Positions 18,850-30,697 of a DNA stretch of 64,000 nt are shown piece after piece; the first letter of the stretch is position 1; every line of letters starts with the position of its first letter. A program made the translations under genes and the position numbers. The stretch is from Promethearchaeota archaeon (GTDB lineage Archaea; Asgardarchaeota; Lokiarchaeia; Sigyniarchaeales; SOKP01): the NCBI GenBank assembly GCA_048940645.1, contig JBHLOI010000009.1:25449-89448 (forward strand), in the 5' to 3' direction. The notes below the pieces were generated by a model that did not search any database, was not told the origin of the DNA, and worked only from the letters and a program-made list of their open reading frames with translations.

Positions 18850-20892
18850 TTGAAAAGAAAATTCATTTATTTATTTTTAATATTCATTCTCTCTCTTAAT
18901 ATGACCCTTATTTTTCCTAATAACACTATGAATGAACCTTTTACAAATTCTAACATACCAGAAGAAGGGGTATTTCGATTATCTTCGATAAACGAATGGG
19001 ATTCTGATGGAAAAGAAATATGTACAGCAGTTTATAATCAAACAAATCCTCAAATATGCTATGATGGGGCAGGGGGTGCTATTATTATATGGGAAGATTT
19101 AAGAAATCCGGTTACACAGAAGGATATCTATGCTCAAAAAATTGATTCAAATGGAAATAAGTTATGGGACAATAATGGAGAAGCTGTATGTACGTCAATT
19201 ACATCTCAAATAAATCCTCAAATTTGTAGTGATGGAAATGGAGGAGCAATTATAACATGGCAGGATTTTAGAAGTGCCACTGATTTCGATATTTATACTC
19301 AAAGCATCGATTCCAATGGAAATATAAAATGGAATATTAATTGTATTCCCATTTGCACTTCGGAAAATAACCAATATGCTCCCCAAATTTGCATTGATGG
19401 AGTCGGGGGCGCTATTATAACATGGTATGATAATAGAAGTGGTGACTTTGATATTTATGCTCAACGAATTGATATCGATGGAAATATAAAATGGAATCCT
19501 AATGGTACTTTAATTTGTACAGAGATAAATGACCAATCATTACCTCAGATTTGCAGTGATGAAAACGGAGGAGCAATTATTACATGGCAAGATTATAGAA
19601 ATGGTGTTCCTGCATTTGCTGATATATATTCTCAAAAAATAAATTCAACTGGAGAAGTGAAATGGACTATTAATGGAGAAGCTATATGCACAGAGAATGG
19701 AGTTCAAGCTAATGCTCAATTATGTAGTGATAAAACTGGAGGGGCAATTATTACCTGGCAGGATTTTAGGAATTTTGCAGATTATGATATTTATGTTCAA
19801 AGGGTTAATTCTACAGGTAGTGTGAAATGGGTTATTGAGGGGTTAACTATCTGTGCTGCAAGTGATGACCAAGAGAATCCAAAGTTATGCACAGATGGAA
19901 TTGGAGGTGCTATAATTACATGGGAAGATTATAGAGATGGTATAGATTATGATCTATATGCCCAAATGGCTAATTCCAACGGAAATATTACATGGATACC
20001 TAATGGGGTAGTCATTTGCACCATAGCCAATGATCAAACTAATCCTCAAATTTGTAGTGATGGAGGTGGAGGTGCTATTATAACATGGCAAGATTATAGA
20101 AGCGCTATAAACTATGATATTTACTCTCAGCGAGTAAATACTAACGGGAATATGACATGGACTGAAAATGGTGCTCCTATATGTACTTCAAACAATGATC
20201 AAAAAAACCCTCAAATTTGTGTCGATGGAACTGGAGGAGCAATTATTAGTTGGCAAGATTACAGATATGGATCAGATTACGATATTTTCGCTCAAAATAT
20301 AAAGAATGAAGCACCATTTAGTATTTGGGATTTCTTAATAGAATATGGTTTATATATTGGTATCGGTATAGCTTTACTTGCTCTTATTACTGCTATTGCT
20401 CTTCGAAGGAAATCAATAAAAGGGAGGAGACTCCGTGTATTTATTAGTCATGCTGTGGCTGATTTTGAGGTATATAAAATTAAAGAAATAGCTGAATATT
20501 TAGAGAAACAAAAGGAAATATCCGATGTATATTATTGTGAAGAGGATCTTGTAGGTAATATTGATGATTGGATGAAGAGGACTGTACCTCGTTGTCAACT
20601 TTTAATCTTTTTTTCCTCCGATAATTCTTTAAAATCAAGAGATTGTATGAATGAATTAAAACTAGCACGAAAATATAATATTCAAATCACCCCAATTTTA
20701 GGAACTAATCTAAGATGGGAAGATCTAGAAGGACTAAATATTAACAGAGAACTTGGAATGGTATACGATCCAGCTGAATTTGATAAGTTTCGCAAGGATC
20801 TGAATAACTATGTCTTAAAATTTAAAGAAGACTTAGAAAAAGAAATCCTTGAAAAAAAAGAAGGAAGGAAAGAGAAGAAAATGAAAACCTAA
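18850..20892 (+). CDS. Single-pass receptor-like protein: signal peptide, 8 beta-propeller-like repeats, TM helix, cytoplasmic TIR domain
   Basis: Eight ~55-aa repeats (ICT-x4-Q-x2-PQIC-x-DG-x-GGAIITWQD-x-R...DIYAQ); TM GLYIGIGIALLALITAIAL then RRK; TIR VFISHA ... SRDCMNEL-x2-A ... ITPI. Confidence 0.88.
   Translation: MKRKFIYLFLIFILSLNMTLIFPNNTMNEPFTNSNIPEEGVFRLSSINEWDSDGKEICTAVYNQTNPQICYDGAGGAIIIWEDLRNPVTQKDIYAQKIDSNGNKLWDNNGEAVCTSITSQINPQICSDGNGGAIITWQDFRSATDFDIYTQSIDSNGNIKWNINCIPICTSENNQYAPQICIDGVGGAIITWYDNRSGDFDIYAQRIDIDGNIKWNPNGTLICTEINDQSLPQICSDENGGAIITWQDYRNGVPAFADIYSQKINSTGEVKWTINGEAICTENGVQANAQLCSDKTGGAIITWQDFRNFADYDIYVQRVNSTGSVKWVIEGLTICAASDDQENPKLCTDGIGGAIITWEDYRDGIDYDLYAQMANSNGNITWIPNGVVICTIANDQTNPQICSDGGGGAIITWQDYRSAINYDIYSQRVNTNGNMTWTENGAPICTSNNDQKNPQICVDGTGGAIISWQDYRYGSDYDIFAQNIKNEAPFSIWDFLIEYGLYIGIGIALLALITAIALRRKSIKGRRLRVFISHAVADFEVYKIKEIAEYLEKQKEISDVYYCEEDLVGNIDDWMKRTVPRCQLLIFFSSDNSLKSRDCMNELKLARKYNIQITPILGTNLRWEDLEGLNINRELGMVYDPAEFDKFRKDLNNYVLKFKEDLEKEILEKKEGRKEKKMKT
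18997..20300 (+). repeat. Intragenic tandem repeat, 8 x about 165 bp
   Basis: GGAII motif occurs eight times at ~55-aa spacing. Confidence 0.85.
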
Positions 20893-21044: not shown

Positions 21045-22772
21045 TTAAAAAATACCTGCATCTTTGAGAATTTTCTTATGATCAAATGCTAAGTCCATAG
21101 TTCTAATCTTATCAATTGGGATTGTTTCAGCTGAAACTGCATCATCTCCACCTGCCATTCTTGAAAGATCTCGTACAAGGCGACATTTGAATGCTGTCGA
21201 TACGATTTTACCTCGGGGATCACGTCCTTTCTGATCATATACTCCAATCTTATCAATAATTTCTACGACAAGATTAGTCTCTTCTCTAACTTCTCTGATT
21301 ATTGCTTGTTCAGGATCTTCGTTATATTTAATAAAACCACCGGGGAGTGCATACTTTCCTTTAAAAGGGGCATACTTTCTTTTAATTAATATTATATTTT
21401 GATTATCATCTTGAATAACCGCATCAGCTGTATATCCATATTCCGAGGACTTGGATTTTATTCTGCTATAAATAAAATATCCTATTGTTATAATTAAGAA
21501 AATTCCCAAAATTACCGAAATAATTAAATGCATTAATACAGATCCAGGGTCTAAAGCACTTACGCTTGAAGCAATTCTAATTGCATTTACATAATCTATT
21601 ATAAATCCTGCACCTAATATGACTTGTAAGTAATATAAAGCTTTTTTAGTTCTTTTTTGGATTGCTTCGCTCCTTTTAATATATAATTCCTGCATTGAAT
21701 CATAAAGCATTTTGAATTTTTCATTTGTTCTATTAATAATTACTTCCAAACGGAATTTTCTTATCAAATGCGTTAAAACTCTTGTATAATGTTGACGTGG
21801 GTTCCAATCTAATTCACTATAGATAAGACTCATCTTCGTTTGAATCATCCCCCTTAAAAACCTAAGATTCTTAGTTTTCTCCTCGATCTTTTGTAAACTC
21901 ATAAATACGTCGGAATAGCGTTTCATAAATAAAACGTCAAGTGAATTATTGATTGACATTAAAGCGAAAAGAACAGCCCTCATCTTAGGGGTAGGTTCTA
22001 AGATATGGTCTTTTATATATGGAAACTCTGTTTCATAATTTCTTTCTACCATATAAATGAATCCAGAATTTCTTTTAATATAGTGTAATTCAGATAAGCG
22101 ATTAGATAGATTTTTTTTAACTCTTCTTTCAAAATAGTTCTCGCTATAATCACCCCATTGACCTGCATATACCTGAGTCCAATATCCGAGAGCCTCCTTA
22201 TATCTATCTATACTTTCCTCATTCCATTGAACTTCCATAGGTAGGGTTTTATTAGAGATAACGAAAACGTATATCGGACTTTCTGTATCAAGAAGAAGGA
22301 ACTGATTTTCTCTCTTTTTTCCAAATTTTTTAAGGATATCAATCGTTATAAAGGGAATCTGTTGAATCAAGTCCGATGTAATTTTTTCTTTCTTATATGG
22401 CTCATTTTTATAGTATTCGACTTCTAACTTGAAATAACCAAGTGTATTATAGACTAAATCTCTATTATCTTCAGTATACGGGTTATTTTCATCAGTATAA
22501 GGGAAATTTTGAAAAAATGGCTCCCAATCGCACTCAATTGAAATAGAATTGGCCATTTCCCTCAATATCTGCTTTTTTTCTTCAGCATAAGGATATTTTT
22601 CTAAATATATAAATGCTTTCTTAAGATCATTTTCATTTAGGTTTTTTAATCTCTCCAATAAAAGAGCTTCTATTTCTTCTGCCTTAGTTTCTCCAATGAA
22701 CTCGTTTGTATTAATAAACGCACTAATATACCAGAATTCTTTTGCATAAACAAACCGTAACTTTTCTTCCAT
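21045..22772 (-). CDS. CorA/RMD1-like two-TM membrane protein fused to a C-terminal ADP-ribose-type Nudix hydrolase
   Basis: Large soluble N-domain, long amphipathic stalk into two TMs, then TADAVI..LIKR..PFKG-x-YALPGGF, Nudix box G-x5-E-x7-REVREE, RDPR and LAFDH (COG1051/NrtR-type). Confidence 0.8.
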   Translation of the reverse strand: MEEKLRFVYAKEFWYISAFINTNEFIGETKAEEIEALLLERLKNLNENDLKKAFIYLEKYPYAEEKKQILREMANSISIECDWEPFFQNFPYTDENNPYTEDNRDLVYNTLGYFKLEVEYYKNEPYKKEKITSDLIQQIPFITIDILKKFGKKRENQFLLLDTESPIYVFVISNKTLPMEVQWNEESIDRYKEALGYWTQVYAGQWGDYSENYFERRVKKNLSNRLSELHYIKRNSGFIYMVERNYETEFPYIKDHILEPTPKMRAVLFALMSINNSLDVLFMKRYSDVFMSLQKIEEKTKNLRFLRGMIQTKMSLIYSELDWNPRQHYTRVLTHLIRKFRLEVIINRTNEKFKMLYDSMQELYIKRSEAIQKRTKKALYYLQVILGAGFIIDYVNAIRIASSVSALDPGSVLMHLIISVILGIFLIITIGYFIYSRIKSKSSEYGYTADAVIQDDNQNIILIKRKYAPFKGKYALPGGFIKYNEDPEQAIIREVREETNLVVEIIDKIGVYDQKGRDPRGKIVSTAFKCRLVRDLSRMAGGDDAVSAETIPIDKIRTMDLAFDHKKILKDAGIF

Positions 22773-26482: not shown

Positions 26483-29400
26483 ATGTCAAAGAAGAGATTC
26501 ATTATTCTATGTCTAATGGTTGTTCTATTTTTAAGTTGTAATTTTACTCTGAATATGGTTAATTTTGAGAATAAAATGATTTTTCAAAAAGAGCTTTGTC
26601 TTAAAAGTTCTGGTTACTGGGTTCTTAATAGTATTATTATCGATGATACAGGGGGAGGAGATTACCTATGGATAACAGCAGCAGCTGAAGATTGGTGTAG
26701 CGGTAGTGGCACATGGAATAACCCTTACGTAATTGAGAATGTCACATTTAATGCTAACAATGCAGGTAGTGGCTTATTAATTCGTAACTCAAATAAATAT
26801 TTTATAGTCAGAAATTGTACTTTTCATAATTCAGGTTCTTTCACAGGGGAATATAACGATGCAGGGCTTAGTCTAAATAATACTAAGAATGGTAAACTTA
26901 TCGATAATGAATGCTCATTTAATAATGGATATGGAATCTCCTTAGATTGGAATAGCGATAATAATACTGTTGAAGGAAATATCCTAAAAAATAATTCAAT
27001 TGATGGGGCGATTTTAAGATATAGTTATAACATTACTTTTTCAAGAAATACCGCAATATTTAATGTTGGAACTGGAATTACTACACTTGGAGCTAATAAT
27101 TCTAAAATTTTTCAAAATACAGCTATATATAATCAGGCTGGTATATGTATTGCTAGTGGGAGTAAAAATATTACAGTATCTGATAATATTATAAGGCATA
27201 ATACAATTGAGGGACTCTATTTAAGGGTAGGATCTACGAATAATACGTTTAAAAATAATCTAATATCATATAATGGCTTAGGCAACGGGTATGGGATAGG
27301 ACTAAGAATGGATGGCACCACTTTTAATAAAATCTTAAATAATGATATAAAAGACAATAGGAACGGGATTGAAATGCTTACTTATGATAATAATCATCAT
27401 AATATCATCTTTAATAATGAAATAGAAGATAATGAACTATATGGATTAAGTATCCAAAATGGCAGTAATGATAATCTTATATATGGGAATCTTTTTAGTA
27501 ATAGTCCAAATAATGCTTTTGACAATGGAGCTAATAACAGTTGGGACAATGGAGTCTTAGGGAATTGTTGGGATGATTATAATGGCACTGGTCCATATAT
27601 CATTTGGGGGAATGCAGGGAGTCAAGATAATTTTCCAATGTTTAACAATTACAATATTCCAGGTGATATTGGTATTATTCCCTTAAATCAGACTATTAAA
27701 ATCGGTTTAATTAATGATATGAATCATATAACTGGAAAAGATACTTTGAAGGGAGCTAACTTGGCAGCCAAAGAAGTCAATGAAGCTGGTGGAGTCTTAA
27801 TTAATGGTTCTATCTTCTATATAGGTCTTACGTCACATAATACTTTTGAGTATGAAATACCTCTTAATATAAATAACGGAGTTAACGCTGTCTATAATAT
27901 GATTTCTAATTACAATCCAGATTTTATTATTGGAGGAACACAATATGATGCAGTAAATGCATACACTGAAACTATTATGGATGCTAAAATTCCATTTATT
28001 TCAACAGGATGTAGTTTAAATACTCTTACTCAAAATGTAATAGATAATTATAATCGGTATAAATATTTTTTCAGGGCAATGATTAATGCTTCACAAATAT
28101 TCACAGAACTAATGAACTTTCAAGCATACCTAACTAACTATTTAAGTAGTCCATCAATTTTAAATAGACCAATTAATAAAATAGCATTTCTTTATGAAGA
28201 TTTATATTATTATTCTAATCTTATGAACACACTAAAAACTTATTTACCTATAGTTGGGATAGAAATTGTAAAAGAGATTAAGTATGACTCAAGCACTAGT
28301 AAAAGTGAATTTGAACAATATTGGAATGAAATAGATAATGCAGGAGCTCAGCTTACGTTAGTAGGTTCTTTTTTTTCAGACAAGGTAAAGATAATCAGTG
28401 AAACTTATGGTGAAATTAAACCTAGATGCTTATTATTTAGTACATATTATAATTCGACGAAAGAATATTGGGATGGAAGCAATGGAAAATGTCAATATGA
28501 AATTTCCTATCAAAGTATCTATAACATTTCTAGAACTTCGCTAACAAAACCTTTTTGGAATAATTTTATAAATGAATATAACCATGAACCCACGTTCCAC
28601 AGTGCGAGTGCATACAATGCCATTTATCTTATCGTAAATGCAACTAAAGACAGTCAATCGTGGAGTGCTGATAAAATAGTAGGTAGCTTAGAAAAAATTA
28701 ATACATCCAATTCCTTTCCTGGAGTTTGTGGACATATAGCTTTTAAATCTTCTCATGGGATTTATAATGCTTTAGGCTATGGTTCAGGTTTAATGTGCCA
28801 ATGGCAATCAGGTGGAACTAAAGTAGTAATTCCAAATGGGAATTTGATTTATTCTGATTCCTTAGCAACTGGAAGTTTAGAAACCCCTGATTGGGGAATT
28901 AATATTCGTTTTACAATAAATTCTCCCAGTAAAAATAATGTATTTGCTGAGTTCTCCCCAGATTTTAATATTGAGATTTTAGATGCAGTAGACAAAATCT
29001 GGTACACGTTAAATTCTGGATCAGAAAAATATTTTATAACGAATAATGAAACAATTGATCAAACAGCTTGGATGGCTTTATCTGATGGGGTTGTCAAGAT
29101 TACGTTTTATTCTAATGAGACTTCAGGAGAAATCTATAGGAGATTTGTTCATGTAATAAAAGACACTGAACCTCCGCAAGTTACAATAGAACCTATGGAT
29201 ACCACTACATTTGGAAGTGAAGCACCTACGATAATACTCAATATTCAGGATACGTCTAATATAACAGAAAGTTATTATAGCTTAGATGGAGGAGTAACAA
29301 AAATACCATTTACCGGCAATGAAGTTACAATTAATCAAACGCTCTGGGATGTGTTAGGAGAAGGAATAGTAACAATTAGTTTTTACATTATCGATTCAGT

Positions 29401-30697
29401 TGGTAAGGAAACCATTGTATACGTAGATGTTTATAAAGATTTACCAGGTGATGACTTTCTCTTATATATTATTATAGGTGTTATAGCTCTTGGTTTAGGA
29501 GTTGTGAGTACTATTGTTTATACCCAATATAGAAGAAAAAAGAGAAGAAGAACTGAATGGATTAAACTTAAAAAGAAAAAGGGCTTAATCTCACCAGAAT
29601 TAGCTGAAGGTAAAAACTTAATTTTTATAAGTTATGCAACAACAGATTCAGACCTATTCCAAATCCCATTAATTACCGATATTTTAGTCCAATACCCCGA
29701 GATCGATGATATACTTTATTGGGAATCCGATATGCATGATGACATTTATGAATATATGGACGATAACCTAAAACTCTGTTCTGTTTTCCTTCTGTTTTGT
29801 TCACAAAATTCCCTCTATTCGGAACCTGTTAAAATGGAATGGCGTTCAGCGTTAAAATTAGATAAGAAAATAATTCCCATTTTCATTAATCCAAATGATA
29901 TTCCCCCATTATTAACTACCAAATTAGGTGTGCAATTTAATGAAAGTGAAGTTTATGATTCAATAGAAGCAATATACCAAATGCTTCTCAAAAAGCTGGA
30001 AATAGTTTCTACTAGAGAATTTTGTAAATATTTAATTCCAAAAATGGTTTCCGACCAATATTTTGAAGAAAAAACAGCAGTAATGGTGAAAAAAGATATT
30101 GAAATTGAAAGCGATAATACTATTGATGATCTACAAATACAATTTATTTCAATTTTAGAAAAGAATAACTTTCAATTTCTCAAAAAACCAATAGAAATTG
30201 AAGAAATAGAGAAATCAGAATCCCATTTAATATCTCTAAGATTTTTTGCTGAAGATAAATTTGAAAAACTAGAAATTGGATTAACTGCTACTATTCAAAA
30301 AGTTGAAGATTATAAGAATAAAATTTATCTTAGAGTCATGGGGAATAGAGAATGGATGGTAAATGAAATTTTAAGCGATCTTGCTAATAAATCATATCCA
30401 TTAAAAACTGTCACTGAATTATTAAGAGAATATTCAGAAAAAATTGATAATTTCATAGATCATATAGACAATCTTGAAGAATTTCTTAGAAAAAATCTTG
30501 GTCCAGAAATTGAGGAAATTGAAGAAACAATATATCAATATTTAAGTAAGCAAATTGAAAAAGACGATTTTATAAAGAAAGGGCTCCAAATTCTTGGAAA
30601 GCGATTTATACTAGTTTTCATAGAAAATTTACCAAAAATACTTCATGAAAAGGAAGAGTTAGAAGATAAAGGCAAGGAGATTGACATTCAACTTTAA
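26483..30697 (+). CDS. Single-pass receptor-like protein: signal peptide, NosD/CASH beta-helix, type-I periplasmic-binding (Venus-flytrap) domain, Ig-like domains, TM helix, TIR, C-terminal domain
   Basis: GSGT-x2-NPYVIE plus Asn-ladder repeats; IKIGL..GANLAAKEVNEAGG (LivJ-like); two Ig-like units; TM FLLYIIIGVIALGLGVVSTIVY then RRKKRRR; TIR IFISYA ... SEPVKMEW-x2-A ... KIIPIF. Confidence 0.88.
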   Translation: MSKKRFIILCLMVVLFLSCNFTLNMVNFENKMIFQKELCLKSSGYWVLNSIIIDDTGGGDYLWITAAAEDWCSGSGTWNNPYVIENVTFNANNAGSGLLIRNSNKYFIVRNCTFHNSGSFTGEYNDAGLSLNNTKNGKLIDNECSFNNGYGISLDWNSDNNTVEGNILKNNSIDGAILRYSYNITFSRNTAIFNVGTGITTLGANNSKIFQNTAIYNQAGICIASGSKNITVSDNIIRHNTIEGLYLRVGSTNNTFKNNLISYNGLGNGYGIGLRMDGTTFNKILNNDIKDNRNGIEMLTYDNNHHNIIFNNEIEDNELYGLSIQNGSNDNLIYGNLFSNSPNNAFDNGANNSWDNGVLGNCWDDYNGTGPYIIWGNAGSQDNFPMFNNYNIPGDIGIIPLNQTIKIGLINDMNHITGKDTLKGANLAAKEVNEAGGVLINGSIFYIGLTSHNTFEYEIPLNINNGVNAVYNMISNYNPDFIIGGTQYDAVNAYTETIMDAKIPFISTGCSLNTLTQNVIDNYNRYKYFFRAMINASQIFTELMNFQAYLTNYLSSPSILNRPINKIAFLYEDLYYYSNLMNTLKTYLPIVGIEIVKEIKYDSSTSKSEFEQYWNEIDNAGAQLTLVGSFFSDKVKIISETYGEIKPRCLLFSTYYNSTKEYWDGSNGKCQYEISYQSIYNISRTSLTKPFWNNFINEYNHEPTFHSASAYNAIYLIVNATKDSQSWSADKIVGSLEKINTSNSFPGVCGHIAFKSSHGIYNALGYGSGLMCQWQSGGTKVVIPNGNLIYSDSLATGSLETPDWGINIRFTINSPSKNNVFAEFSPDFNIEILDAVDKIWYTLNSGSEKYFITNNETIDQTAWMALSDGVVKITFYSNETSGEIYRRFVHVIKDTEPPQVTIEPMDTTTFGSEAPTIILNIQDTSNITESYYSLDGGVTKIPFTGNEVTINQTLWDVLGEGIVTISFYIIDSVGKETIVYVDVYKDLPGDDFLLYIIIGVIALGLGVVSTIVYTQYRRKKRRRTEWIKLKKKKGLISPELAEGKNLIFISYATTDSDLFQIPLITDILVQYPEIDDILYWESDMHDDIYEYMDDNLKLCSVFLLFCSQNSLYSEPVKMEWRSALKLDKKIIPIFINPNDIPPLLTTKLGVQFNESEVYDSIEAIYQMLLKKLEIVSTREFCKYLIPKMVSDQYFEEKTAVMVKKDIEIESDNTIDDLQIQFISILEKNNFQFLKKPIEIEEIEKSESHLISLRFFAEDKFEKLEIGLTATIQKVEDYKNKIYLRVMGNREWMVNEILSDLANKSYPLKTVTELLREYSEKIDNFIDHIDNLEEFLRKNLGPEIEEIEETIYQYLSKQIEKDDFIKKGLQILGKRFILVFIENLPKILHEKEELEDKGKEIDIQL

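Follow-up and report, generated by a model that had tools for sequence, protein, structure and literature searches.

The gene at 21045..22772 on the minus strand of the window (the whole 64,000-nucleotide stretch of Asgard archaeal DNA analysed here) encodes a conserved two-pass membrane protein with a C-terminal Nudix domain, and its family is undescribed. As to function, we tentatively favour a membrane effector that is coupled to TIR/NAD products and carries a built-in hydrolase for the signal. The parts of the gene and the two TIR genes near it are:

18850..20892 (+), receptor-like TIR neighbour of 680 aa, convergent with the gene, 152 bp tail-to-tail
21045..22772 (-), the complete gene (575 aa and a stop codon), comprising an N-body, a membrane hairpin of two helices and a Nudix domain
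22047..22772 (-), alpha/beta N-terminal domain, aa 1-242, with the hallmark region at its end
22053..22181 (-), hallmark motif W..YSGQW.DY...R...NLSNR.SELH.I.RNSGFIY, aa 198-240
21642..22046 (-), helical bundle and long basic stalk helix, aa 243-377 (H243-285, H293-323, H327-339, H342-386), from the AlphaFold model
21570..21641 (-), TM1, aa 378-401, which extends the stalk helix; weakly hydrophobic, no GMN
21540..21569 (-), external loop, short and variable, aa 402-411
21465..21539 (-), TM2, aa 412-436, strongly hydrophobic and poorly conserved
21435..21464 (-), basic linker of ~10 residues from TM2 to the Nudix domain, aa 437-446
21048..21434 (-), Nudix domain of the NadM-Nudix/NrtR (ADP-ribose) type, aa 447-575, with RDPRG, GDDA and LAFDH motifs
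21270..21338 (-), Nudix box GFIKYNEDPEQAIIREVREETNL, aa 479-501
26483..30697 (+), second TIR_2 protein, 1404 aa, 3.7 kb away, with NosD/beta-helix, periplasmic-binding-protein and TIR (nt 29621-29947) parts

The ORF is intact, with an ATG start, 575 codons for amino acids and no internal stops, and both peptides quoted in the first-pass annotation are found in its translation (INRTNEKFKMLYDSMQELYIKRSEAIQKRTKK, aa 346-377; ILGAGFIIDYVN, aa 386-397). That annotation had proposed three parts, namely an N-body, a hairpin and a Nudix domain, and the open frame, the Pfam NUDIX match and the AlphaFold helices bear this out. Pfam returned nothing credible for the protein besides NUDIX, which leaves the N-body of ~377 aa without a Pfam family, and an Rfam search of the window gave no match. 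As had been anticipated, the sole name in public records is "NUDIX hydrolase"; relatives, where the sources name them, are called just "NUDIX" or "8-oxo-dGTP diphosphatase". Because 573 proteins match at E<=0.001, and the best 120 of these are 55-91% identical and nearly all 573-578 aa long, we conclude that the gene is real and under selection. Among orthologues the soluble domains are 70-90% identical.

The distribution of the family is patchy: it is present in 25 of 151 sampled Asgard genomes, and no copy turned up in several genomes of the same family with 98-100% completeness. The N-body-plus-hairpin module also occurs without Nudix in two clades, which indicates that this membrane module can stand on its own and gained the Nudix domain as an addition. 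No common theme was seen among the gene neighbours of the bacterial and Nudix-less members, and a metagenome search recovered no locus for P0133, an MMETSP-derived member. Short contigs that match parts of the ORF at 85-98% identity are present in two runs of RNA libraries, which come from two studies; the runs were picked with the gene's own words and may include DNA, so that they suggest at most weakly that relatives are transcribed.

In the AlphaFold model, one long helix (342-386/388-401) is followed by a second (409-442). The pLDDT is mostly >85 over aa 10-170 of the N-terminal domain and low in the hallmark motif, which is the most conserved region family-wide (mean entropy 1.73 vs 2.6-2.7 in the flanking regions). 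A Kyte-Doolittle plot (19-aa window, cutoff 1.6) has a strong peak at aa 404-439, and TM1 (aa ~378-401) falls under the cutoff because of the Q, D, N and R within it. Lys and Arg residues flank the hairpin (6 in aa 365-385 before TM1 and 3 in aa 437-450 after TM2) and are missing from the loop, so both the N-body and the Nudix domain are predicted to be cytoplasmic; the placement of the two soluble parts on one side in the first-pass annotation thus agrees with the modelled helices and with the charge distribution. Conservation is lowest in the hairpin and loop. Within the hairpin, it is higher in TM1 than in TM2 (entropy 1.29 vs 1.72), and TM1 carries a family-conserved stripe of polar N/Q, G-x-G and D/E.

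The protein had also been described as CorA/RMD1-like. What stands of this description is a resemblance to CorA that consists of layout, a weak hhalign signal and language-model leads; membership by HMM, for either CorA or RMD1, does not stand. In layout, the protein follows CorA/Mrs2/ZntB, with an alpha/beta domain, a long stalk helix that merges with TM1, then TM2 after a short loop, and both ends predicted to be cytoplasmic. When compared with 27 Asgard CorA sequences by hhalign, it gave a probability of 4.5% and a score of 28.1 (22 decoys scored <=22.8), and the alignment is limited to the stalk end, TM1 and TM2, where Q-K-R-T-K-K/TM1/TM2 is in register with N..MK.LT/TM1/TM2 of CorA. For language-model features of two family members, "CorA-like" clusters are among the nearest named ones. 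The Pfam CorA model (PF01544), however, does not match the gene at E<=1 (protein) or E<=10 (genome), whereas it finds a canonical CorA elsewhere in the genome at 3.4e-71, which carries YGMNF. DUF155/RMD1 (PF02582) has no match in the protein at E<=1, and at E<=10 in the genome it matches just two other places. The absence of GMN after TM1, already pointed out in the first-pass annotation, holds throughout: the sequence at the outer end of TM1 is ...LGAGFIIDYVNAIRIA..., and none of 41 aligned family members has the motif, while each of the 27 Asgard CorA control proteins has G-M-N near its C-terminus. The protein further differs from CorA in lacking a conserved outer loop and in having a domain after TM2. 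Three family profiles compared by sequence with solved structures gave nothing meaningful, and Foldseek of the full-length model (pLDDT 78, a poor model for the N-body) against pdb and pdb_via_wide returned Nudix matches only, which does not bear on the fold of the N-body. A model of aa 243-445 in four copies, where CorA is a homopentamer, scored 0.24 vs a mark of 0.42, which is no argument either way about an oligomer. SLATT or another known effector TM domain was considered and rejected, as there was no Pfam or PADLOC match. The earlier suggestion of a ligand-gated channel-enzyme is still an inference.

Pfam NUDIX (PF00293) matches aa 447-570 (nt ~21063-21434) with an E-value of 2.4e-18 and 66.9 bits (cut-off 21.1), and the domain has the Nudix alpha/beta/alpha fold. 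The Nudix box GX5EX7REUXEEXGU is intact, with the catalytic Glu residues present (G-x5-E-x7-REVxEE) and a sole deviation, N for the penultimate G. It is likewise intact in all but a handful of the ~99 family members checked, the degenerate cases being a few divergent members (P0128, P0133 and L110). The best NCBIfam partial matches are NadM-Nudix and NtrR/NrtR, with scores far under the equivalog cut-offs, since the alignment covers the Nudix part alone. In both sequence and fold, the closest relatives are NadM-Nudix ADP-ribose pyrophosphatases and NrtR regulators (PDB 2qjo, 2qjt, 3gz8), with which the domain has RDPRG, GDDA and AFDH motifs in common, as well as two uncharacterised Nudix proteins, 2yyh and 3i9x; RDPRG, GDDA and LAFDH can be aligned with 3i9x, 2qjo and 3gz8. 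Judged from its sequence, the domain is an ADP-ribose-type Nudix enzyme that is apparently active. MutT/8-oxo-dGTPase, the label in some records, was rejected because the closest relatives are of the ADP-ribose type. The NadM-Nudix and NrtR proteins are soluble, and their fusion partner is an adenylyltransferase or a winged-helix DNA-binding domain, whereas here the partner is a membrane module of no known family.

The genomic context offers a possible source for a nucleotide of this kind. The 680-aa neighbour begins with a hydrophobic leader, continues with a repeat ectodomain and a single TM, and has a TIR_2 domain (nt 20437-20706) on the cytoplasmic side; this domain keeps an SxxSxxSxxCxxEL motif with a putative catalytic Glu. 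There are only four TIR_2 matches in the 3.83-Mb genome, one adjacent to the gene and one 3.7 kb off, and across the genus the number of TIR genes per genome is 0-5. A TIR gene lies <=2 genes away in 18 of the 23 loci of the orthologue group; the other five are without one nearby. The TIR neighbours are found on either side of the orthologue, on at least three different synteny backbones, and vary in architecture (WD40-TIR, LVIVD-TIR, TM-TIR, repeat-TIR); from some otherwise identical backbones they are absent. The Glu motif, S..S..(W/C/V)xxE(W/L/I), is kept in 24 of 25 distinct TIR neighbours, and by comparison with plant, SARM1 and bacterial TIRs we take this Glu to be catalytic. The link to TIR genes is limited to one orthologue group of related genomes, and none was seen beside the sister paralogue (~65 loci) or beside distant or bacterial members. 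The sister paralogue is instead head-to-head with the quinolinate synthase gene nadA in 29 loci, nadA being a typical NrtR-regulated gene, and nadA is just downstream of the orthologue in seven loci; since many unrelated housekeeping genes follow one another in the nadA block, this link may be inherited gene order. The remaining flanking genes in the window are metabolic (permease, thioesterase, OsmC, enoyl-CoA hydratase, Hdr-like). PADLOC gave no defence-family match for the N-body, the TIR neighbours, other family members or the partner proteins tested, apart from a generic Nudix candidate family; the protein and its TIR neighbours did not match ThsA/ThsB, the flanks are not a defence island, and no CRISPR/cas genes were seen among the flanking genes scanned.

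In the scenario that we tentatively favour, the gene product would be a membrane-embedded device that faces the cytoplasm and serves an NAD-derived nucleotide pathway. The neighbouring TIR proteins, several of them receptor-like, would cleave NAD+ to ADP-ribose-type nucleotides, which the Nudix domain would bind and hydrolyse. Binding or hydrolysis might then be relayed through the short linker to TM2, TM1 and the stalk of an oligomeric, CorA-shaped body, altering membrane permeability, most likely as a cation flux, and hydrolysis would reset the switch, by the same logic as in type III CRISPR CorA with NrN and TRPM2 with NUDT9-H. This scenario is suggested by the Nudix type (NadM/NrtR) and the intact catalytic box across the family; by the predicted cytoplasmic location of the soluble parts, the short linker, the autonomous membrane module and the conserved polar/Gly/acidic stripe of TM1; by the recurrence of TIR neighbours with the Glu motif despite the few TIR genes per genome; and by the "CorA-like" leads together with the CRISPR CorA/NrN precedent. 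It is weakened by the failure of the CorA and DUF155 HMMs and the weak profile-profile signal, by a hairpin and loop that are least conserved, as for a mere anchor, by the confinement of the TIR link to one orthologue group and its absence from five of 23 loci, by the lack of a PADLOC match and the metabolic flanking genes, and by the strong conservation of the soluble domains, unlike that of typical fast-evolving defence effectors. A narrower version, in which the protein is an ion channel gated by ADP-ribose (or by the TIR product), equipped with a ligand hydrolase and run by neighbouring surface receptors in the style of Toll-like receptors, is unlikely.

Some of the same observations can be read as housekeeping. 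The protein could be a membrane-tethered enzyme of NAD turnover, whose Nudix domain clears ADP-ribose or NAD breakdown products near the membrane, with the N-body as a regulatory or scaffold part, the hairpin as a mere anchor and the TIR neighbours as local gene order. The nearly family-wide Nudix box, the ties of the NadM-Nudix/NrtR subfamily to NAD metabolism, nadA beside both the sister paralogue (29 loci) and the orthologue (seven loci), the poor conservation of hairpin and loop, and a paralogue without TIR neighbours are all consistent with such a role. A plain ADP-ribose pyrophosphatase, however, needs neither a conserved 377-aa body nor a hairpin, and the body-plus-hairpin module survives without Nudix in two clades. 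The gene is moreover accessory (25/151 sampled Asgard genomes), TIR genes of changing type recur alongside it on different backbones in genomes that have 0-5 of them, and the nadA link may be no more than inherited order; we regard this explanation as rather doubtful.

A suicide effector resembling Thoeris, in which a TIR-made nucleotide binds the Nudix domain, mainly a sensor, and drives the formation of membrane-breaching oligomers rather than of a selective channel, would account for the putative catalytic Glu motif in the adjoining TIR genes, the patchy distribution and the degenerate Nudix boxes of P0128, P0133 and L110, which fit binding without catalysis. It also has precedents: known type II Thoeris effectors combine TM helices with an ADP-ribose-binding Macro domain, and many predicted effectors of TIR systems are TM proteins (10.1101/2024.01.03.573942; 10.64898/2025.12.03.692087). 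Yet almost all members retain the catalytic box, the sequence is strongly conserved, PADLOC finds only the generic Nudix candidate family, the surroundings are not a defence island, the TIR partners resemble surface receptors or WD40 scaffolds instead of small ThsB-type sensors, and no Nudix or CorA effector appears in the text of the second preprint (10.64898/2025.12.03.692087), which together make this explanation improbable. Still harder to credit is a divergent CorA/Mrs2/ZntB transporter for Mg2+ or a different divalent cation, regulated through an appended Nudix domain. The CorA-like layout, including a basic tail after TM2, the hhalign register with a score above 22 decoys, a conserved acidic residue near the outer end of TM1 and the language-model leads point towards it, but GMN is absent family-wide, the gene escapes the Pfam CorA model even at E<=10, a canonical CorA (YGMNF) is already present in the genome, the outer loop is variable and without an MPEL-type motif, and an accessory distribution ill suits a core metal transporter.

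The coupled membrane effector that we favour has partial counterparts in other nucleotide-signalling systems. The TRPM2 cation channel reportedly carries a C-terminal NUDT9-H (ADP-ribose Nudix) domain, as Perraud et al. are said to have described in 2001. Common to TRPM2 and the protein here are a cytoplasmic ADP-ribose-type Nudix domain C-terminal to the membrane part and the idea of an ADP-ribose-controlled "chanzyme"; TRPM2, however, is a six-TM tetrameric animal TRP channel with a NUDT9 Nudix domain, whereas here a two-TM hairpin on an unrelated body is joined to a domain of the NadM/NrtR type. With two membrane helices only and no TRP-family match, the protein resembles TRPM2 in logic only. 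CRISPR CorA of type III systems binds SAM-AMP and is paired with the signal-degrading NrN, the two genes being fused in some species (PMC10600005). There, and by prediction here, a large cytoplasmic nucleotide-binding body precedes a two-helix hairpin, the membrane protein is genetically coupled to a signal-destroying enzyme (an NrN/DEDD phosphodiesterase or a SAM-AMP lyase; PMC10600005, PMC12255297), and the signal-generating enzyme is encoded next door. The signal source is Cas10 in that system and putatively TIR here, the hydrolase is of the DHH/DEDD kind there and a C-terminal Nudix domain here, and similarity to CorA can be recognised over the last 172 aa of CRISPR CorA, whereas the protein here shares with CorA only the layout and a weak profile signal. 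With Thoeris, in which the TIR protein ThsB generates a signal that activates an effector, the likeness lies in a TIR gene beside a membrane protein with an ADP-ribose-recognising domain; that domain is an intact Nudix here as opposed to Macro, SLOG or SLATT, and the TIR proteins beside it are large and of receptor-like or WD40 type, with no PADLOC match or defence-island context.

In bacteria, plants and animals alike, immunity and cell-death signalling depend centrally on TIR domains and ADP-ribose-type messengers. The family described here, which comprises ~100 clusters at 50% identity and whose 377-aa body, without a Pfam entry, has been masked by the annotation "NUDIX hydrolase", is a testable candidate for the output arm of such TIR/ADP-ribose-type signalling in archaeal relatives of eukaryotes. 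It would be an independent invention of the design in which a nucleotide-controlled membrane effector is combined with a signal hydrolase, as in CRISPR-CorA/NrN and TRPM2. If the unlikely ion-channel version were true, the protein would parallel animal TRPM2 in function while being built on an unrelated two-TM scaffold, and a full pathway from receptor through NAD-derived second messenger to channel would exist in the archaeal lineage closest to eukaryotes.

The minus-strand ORF at 21045-22772 encodes an uninterrupted 575 aa in a window of ~29% G+C. Among 5.8 billion clustered proteins, 573 match it with E<=0.001, the closest being from Asgard archaea (labelled Promethearchaeota/Lokiarchaeota, Hermod-, Hod-, Thor- and Heimdallarchaeota); among the best 120 of the 573, identity is 55-91% and length is 573-578 aa in almost all. 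Because homologues of this identity are many and nearly constant in length, sequence comparison indicates that the ORF is a real gene under purifying selection. Where source names are given, they are only 'NUDIX' or '8-oxo-dGTP diphosphatase', as the first-pass annotation had predicted.

The sole domain recognised by Pfam is a Nudix domain at aa 447-570, with nothing credible across aa 1-446. An AlphaFold model (38 homologues, pLDDT 78) contains, in order:

aa ~6-180, alpha/beta domain, pLDDT mostly >85
aa 195-237, low-confidence stretch
aa 243-339, helical bundle
aa 342-386, very long helix, carried on as 388-401
short loop between helices 388-401 and 409-442
aa 409-442, second long helix
Nudix fold, after helix 409-442

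Hydropathy is strong at aa 404-439, whereas TM1 (aa ~378-401) falls under the usual cutoff owing to its Q, D, N and R residues. Domain match, modelled helices and hydropathy together bear out the proposed fusion of an N-terminal soluble region, a two-TM hairpin and a C-terminal Nudix domain, with only ~10 residues between TM2 and the last. Since Lys/Arg residues flank the hairpin on both sides and none is in its loop, the two soluble parts should both be cytoplasmic, a predicted topology that agrees with the earlier proposal.

The Nudix box, GFIKYNEDPEQAIIREVREETNL, matches GX5EX7REUXEE. The domain is closest to the NadM-Nudix bifunctional enzymes and to NrtR, an ADP-ribose-responsive regulator; its RDPRG, GDDA and LAFDH motifs align with theirs, and the catalytic box is kept in all but a handful of ~99 non-identical family members (the exceptions include proteins P0128 and P0133 and the member on contig L110). 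On these grounds the best reading is an active ADP-ribose-type pyrophosphatase, its substrate being presumed.

There is a resemblance to CorA in layout: an alpha/beta domain, a stalk helix continuous with TM1, a short loop, TM2 and basic flanks; unlike CorA, the Asgard protein has a Nudix domain after TM2. The Pfam CorA and DUF155 models match neither the protein (E<=1) nor the gene in a search of the genome (E<=10), although the same CorA search recovers a canonical CorA elsewhere at 3e-71. That protein (genome G000, contig C17:202-1062, locus L029; 370-aa frame, YGMNF motif) is the genome's one canonical CorA, so a standard Mg2+ channel is present in any case. Profiles of three family subsets, compared by sequence with solved structures, found none, and a structure search with the full-length model (pLDDT 78) returned Nudix matches only, the N-only model being too poor to judge the fold by. 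Aligned by hhalign with 27 Asgard CorA proteins, the family places its basic stalk end, TM1 and TM2 in the CorA register. The score is 28.1, where 22 decoys (reversed or block-shuffled) reach <=22.8, but the probability is just 4.5%. Clusters automatically named 'CorA-like' are among the nearest named ones in language-model features (0.90-0.91, two family members). The first-pass suggestion of a CorA/RMD1-like protein thus survives as a likeness of layout, with the hhalign signal and language-model leads, and not as a family match: the protein may function as a CorA-shaped module would, but its assignment to CorA or DUF155 is not warranted. The reported lack of the GMN motif holds for every aligned family member examined.

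Among orthologues and paralogues, mean column entropy is lowest in the soluble parts (0.7-0.8), intermediate in TM1 (1.29) and highest in TM2 (1.72) and the loop (2.42). Most members retain a polar N/Q, a G-x-G and an acidic residue in TM1. The best-conserved stretch of the whole family, W..YSGQW.DY...R...NLSNR.SELH.I.RNSGFIY (aa 198-240), falls mostly where the model has low confidence.

Only 97 proteins are recovered when 1.84 billion representatives are scored with a profile of aa 1-445. Because the tree sets the Nudix-fused clade (support 98/91) apart from two clades of 394-456-aa proteins that stop right after TM2, the body plus hairpin reads as an autonomous module to which Nudix was added in one lineage. 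The gene is accessory within Asgard, being found in 25 of 151 sampled genomes, 16 of 25 of its own family and 11 of 12 of its own genus, while several genomes of its family that are 98-100% complete yielded none. Members are mostly Asgard, and a few are on 65-72% G+C contigs of Myxococcota MAGs. More broadly, relatives on 65-73% G+C contigs (L112, L118, L125, L108, L135) come from Myxococcota (Nannocystis, Polyangia, Myxococcales) and Pseudomonadota MAGs, so the family extends beyond Asgard archaea, with possible transfer between them and Myxococcota. Contigs L112 and L125 show the full Nudix fusion; on L108, L118 and L135 the ORF caller gave no family ORF. The family also occurs on contigs L002, L070 and L092, labelled Woesearchaeota, Deferrimicrobium and Nanopelagicaceae, probably through misbinning in the source MAGs. 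G+C is Asgard-like on L070 and L092 (0.31-0.38), and so is the gene order on L092. The 849-aa P0133, whose record is a transcript from MMETSP (marine microbial eukaryotes), has the N-body and hairpin; its Nudix box is degenerate, and each end is extended by a long low-complexity stretch. It could be a homologue from a eukaryote or else contamination, and its nearest relative is P0130.

The gene is flanked by two TIR proteins, its remaining neighbours in the window being metabolic:

18850-20892, plus strand, 680-aa TIR protein, convergent with the gene, 152 bp away
26483-30697, plus strand, 1404-aa TIR protein, on the other side, 3.7 kb away

In layout the 680-aa protein resembles Toll-like receptors: a hydrophobic N-terminal leader is followed by a repeat ectodomain, a single TM and, in the cytoplasm, TIR_2. 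Its ectodomain has ~11 tandem repeats of ~40 aa (consensus ...GGAIITWQD.R....DIY.Q...), and its TIR_2 retains the putative catalytic Glu motif. The 1404-aa protein, the second receptor-like TIR protein <4 kb from the gene, joins NosD/right-handed beta-helix and periplasmic-binding-protein (ANF-receptor-like) domains to TIR_2.

Across the entire 3.83 Mb of the genome TIR_2 is matched only four times, and in the genus each genome has 0-5 TIR genes; a TIR gene nevertheless lies within two genes of the ~575-aa orthologue in 18 of 23 loci from species-representative genomes. The partners are of these types:

~1220-aa WD40-TIR, paired with a 146-aa membrane protein
LVIVD-repeat-TIR
544-aa TM-TIR
the repeat-TIR of the window (680 aa)

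They occur on either side of the orthologue, in at least three synteny backbones, and are absent from some otherwise identical backbones (e.g. L003, L023, L011); 24 of 25 distinct partners retain the motif with the putative catalytic Glu. With partners changing type, side and backbone, such turnover points beyond inherited gene order, although these genomes are related rather than independent. A 138-155-aa multi-pass membrane protein (L005:5220-5663, L012:1507-1944, L019:4846-5310), which has no Pfam or PADLOC match, adjoins a TIR gene at each of the 10 loci in which it was seen (the ~1220-aa WD40-TIR where scanned), and the two look like a pair.

The sister paralogue (~557-563 aa), ~50% identical to the orthologue and at times its tail-to-tail neighbour, has its Nudix box intact. 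None of its ~65 loci has a TIR neighbour; its head-to-head partner is nadA, and both belong to a long conserved block. In loci L066-L137 (e.g. L084:4838-7142) this block comprises a wHTH protein, an LRR protein, divergent nadA, the paralogue, a hexapeptide-repeat transferase (same strand and directly downstream in 37 loci), ThiF, Roadblock/LC7, LSM and two HGD-D subunits. In seven loci nadA is directly downstream of the orthologue. Distant and bacterial members have no context in common.

The protein is membrane-embedded and predicted to face the cytoplasm, and its ADP-ribose-type Nudix domain is probably active. The Nudix type, the domain's fusion with a conserved, autonomous membrane module and the recurrent TIR linkage lead us to propose, tentatively, a device that links the membrane to nucleotides derived from NAD. 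Such a nucleotide would come from the TIR proteins, the Nudix domain would bind and destroy it, and the output, most likely a change in permeability, would fall to the body and hairpin. A plain membrane-tethered NAD-turnover enzyme, which the nadA link and the weak conservation of the hairpin favour, we regard as somewhat less likely. A Thoeris-like suicide effector seems improbable, and a true metal transporter highly improbable.

For the proposed nucleotide-to-membrane device, TRPM2 is an animal analogue. The closest documented logic is that of the CRISPR CorA effector and its signal-degrading NrN, which some species encode as a single fusion (PMC10600005). Full-text literature searches returned no paper describing the architecture of N-body, hairpin and Nudix domain. 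A nucleotide-coupled membrane effector with a signal hydrolase is a design already known; the front domain is undescribed.
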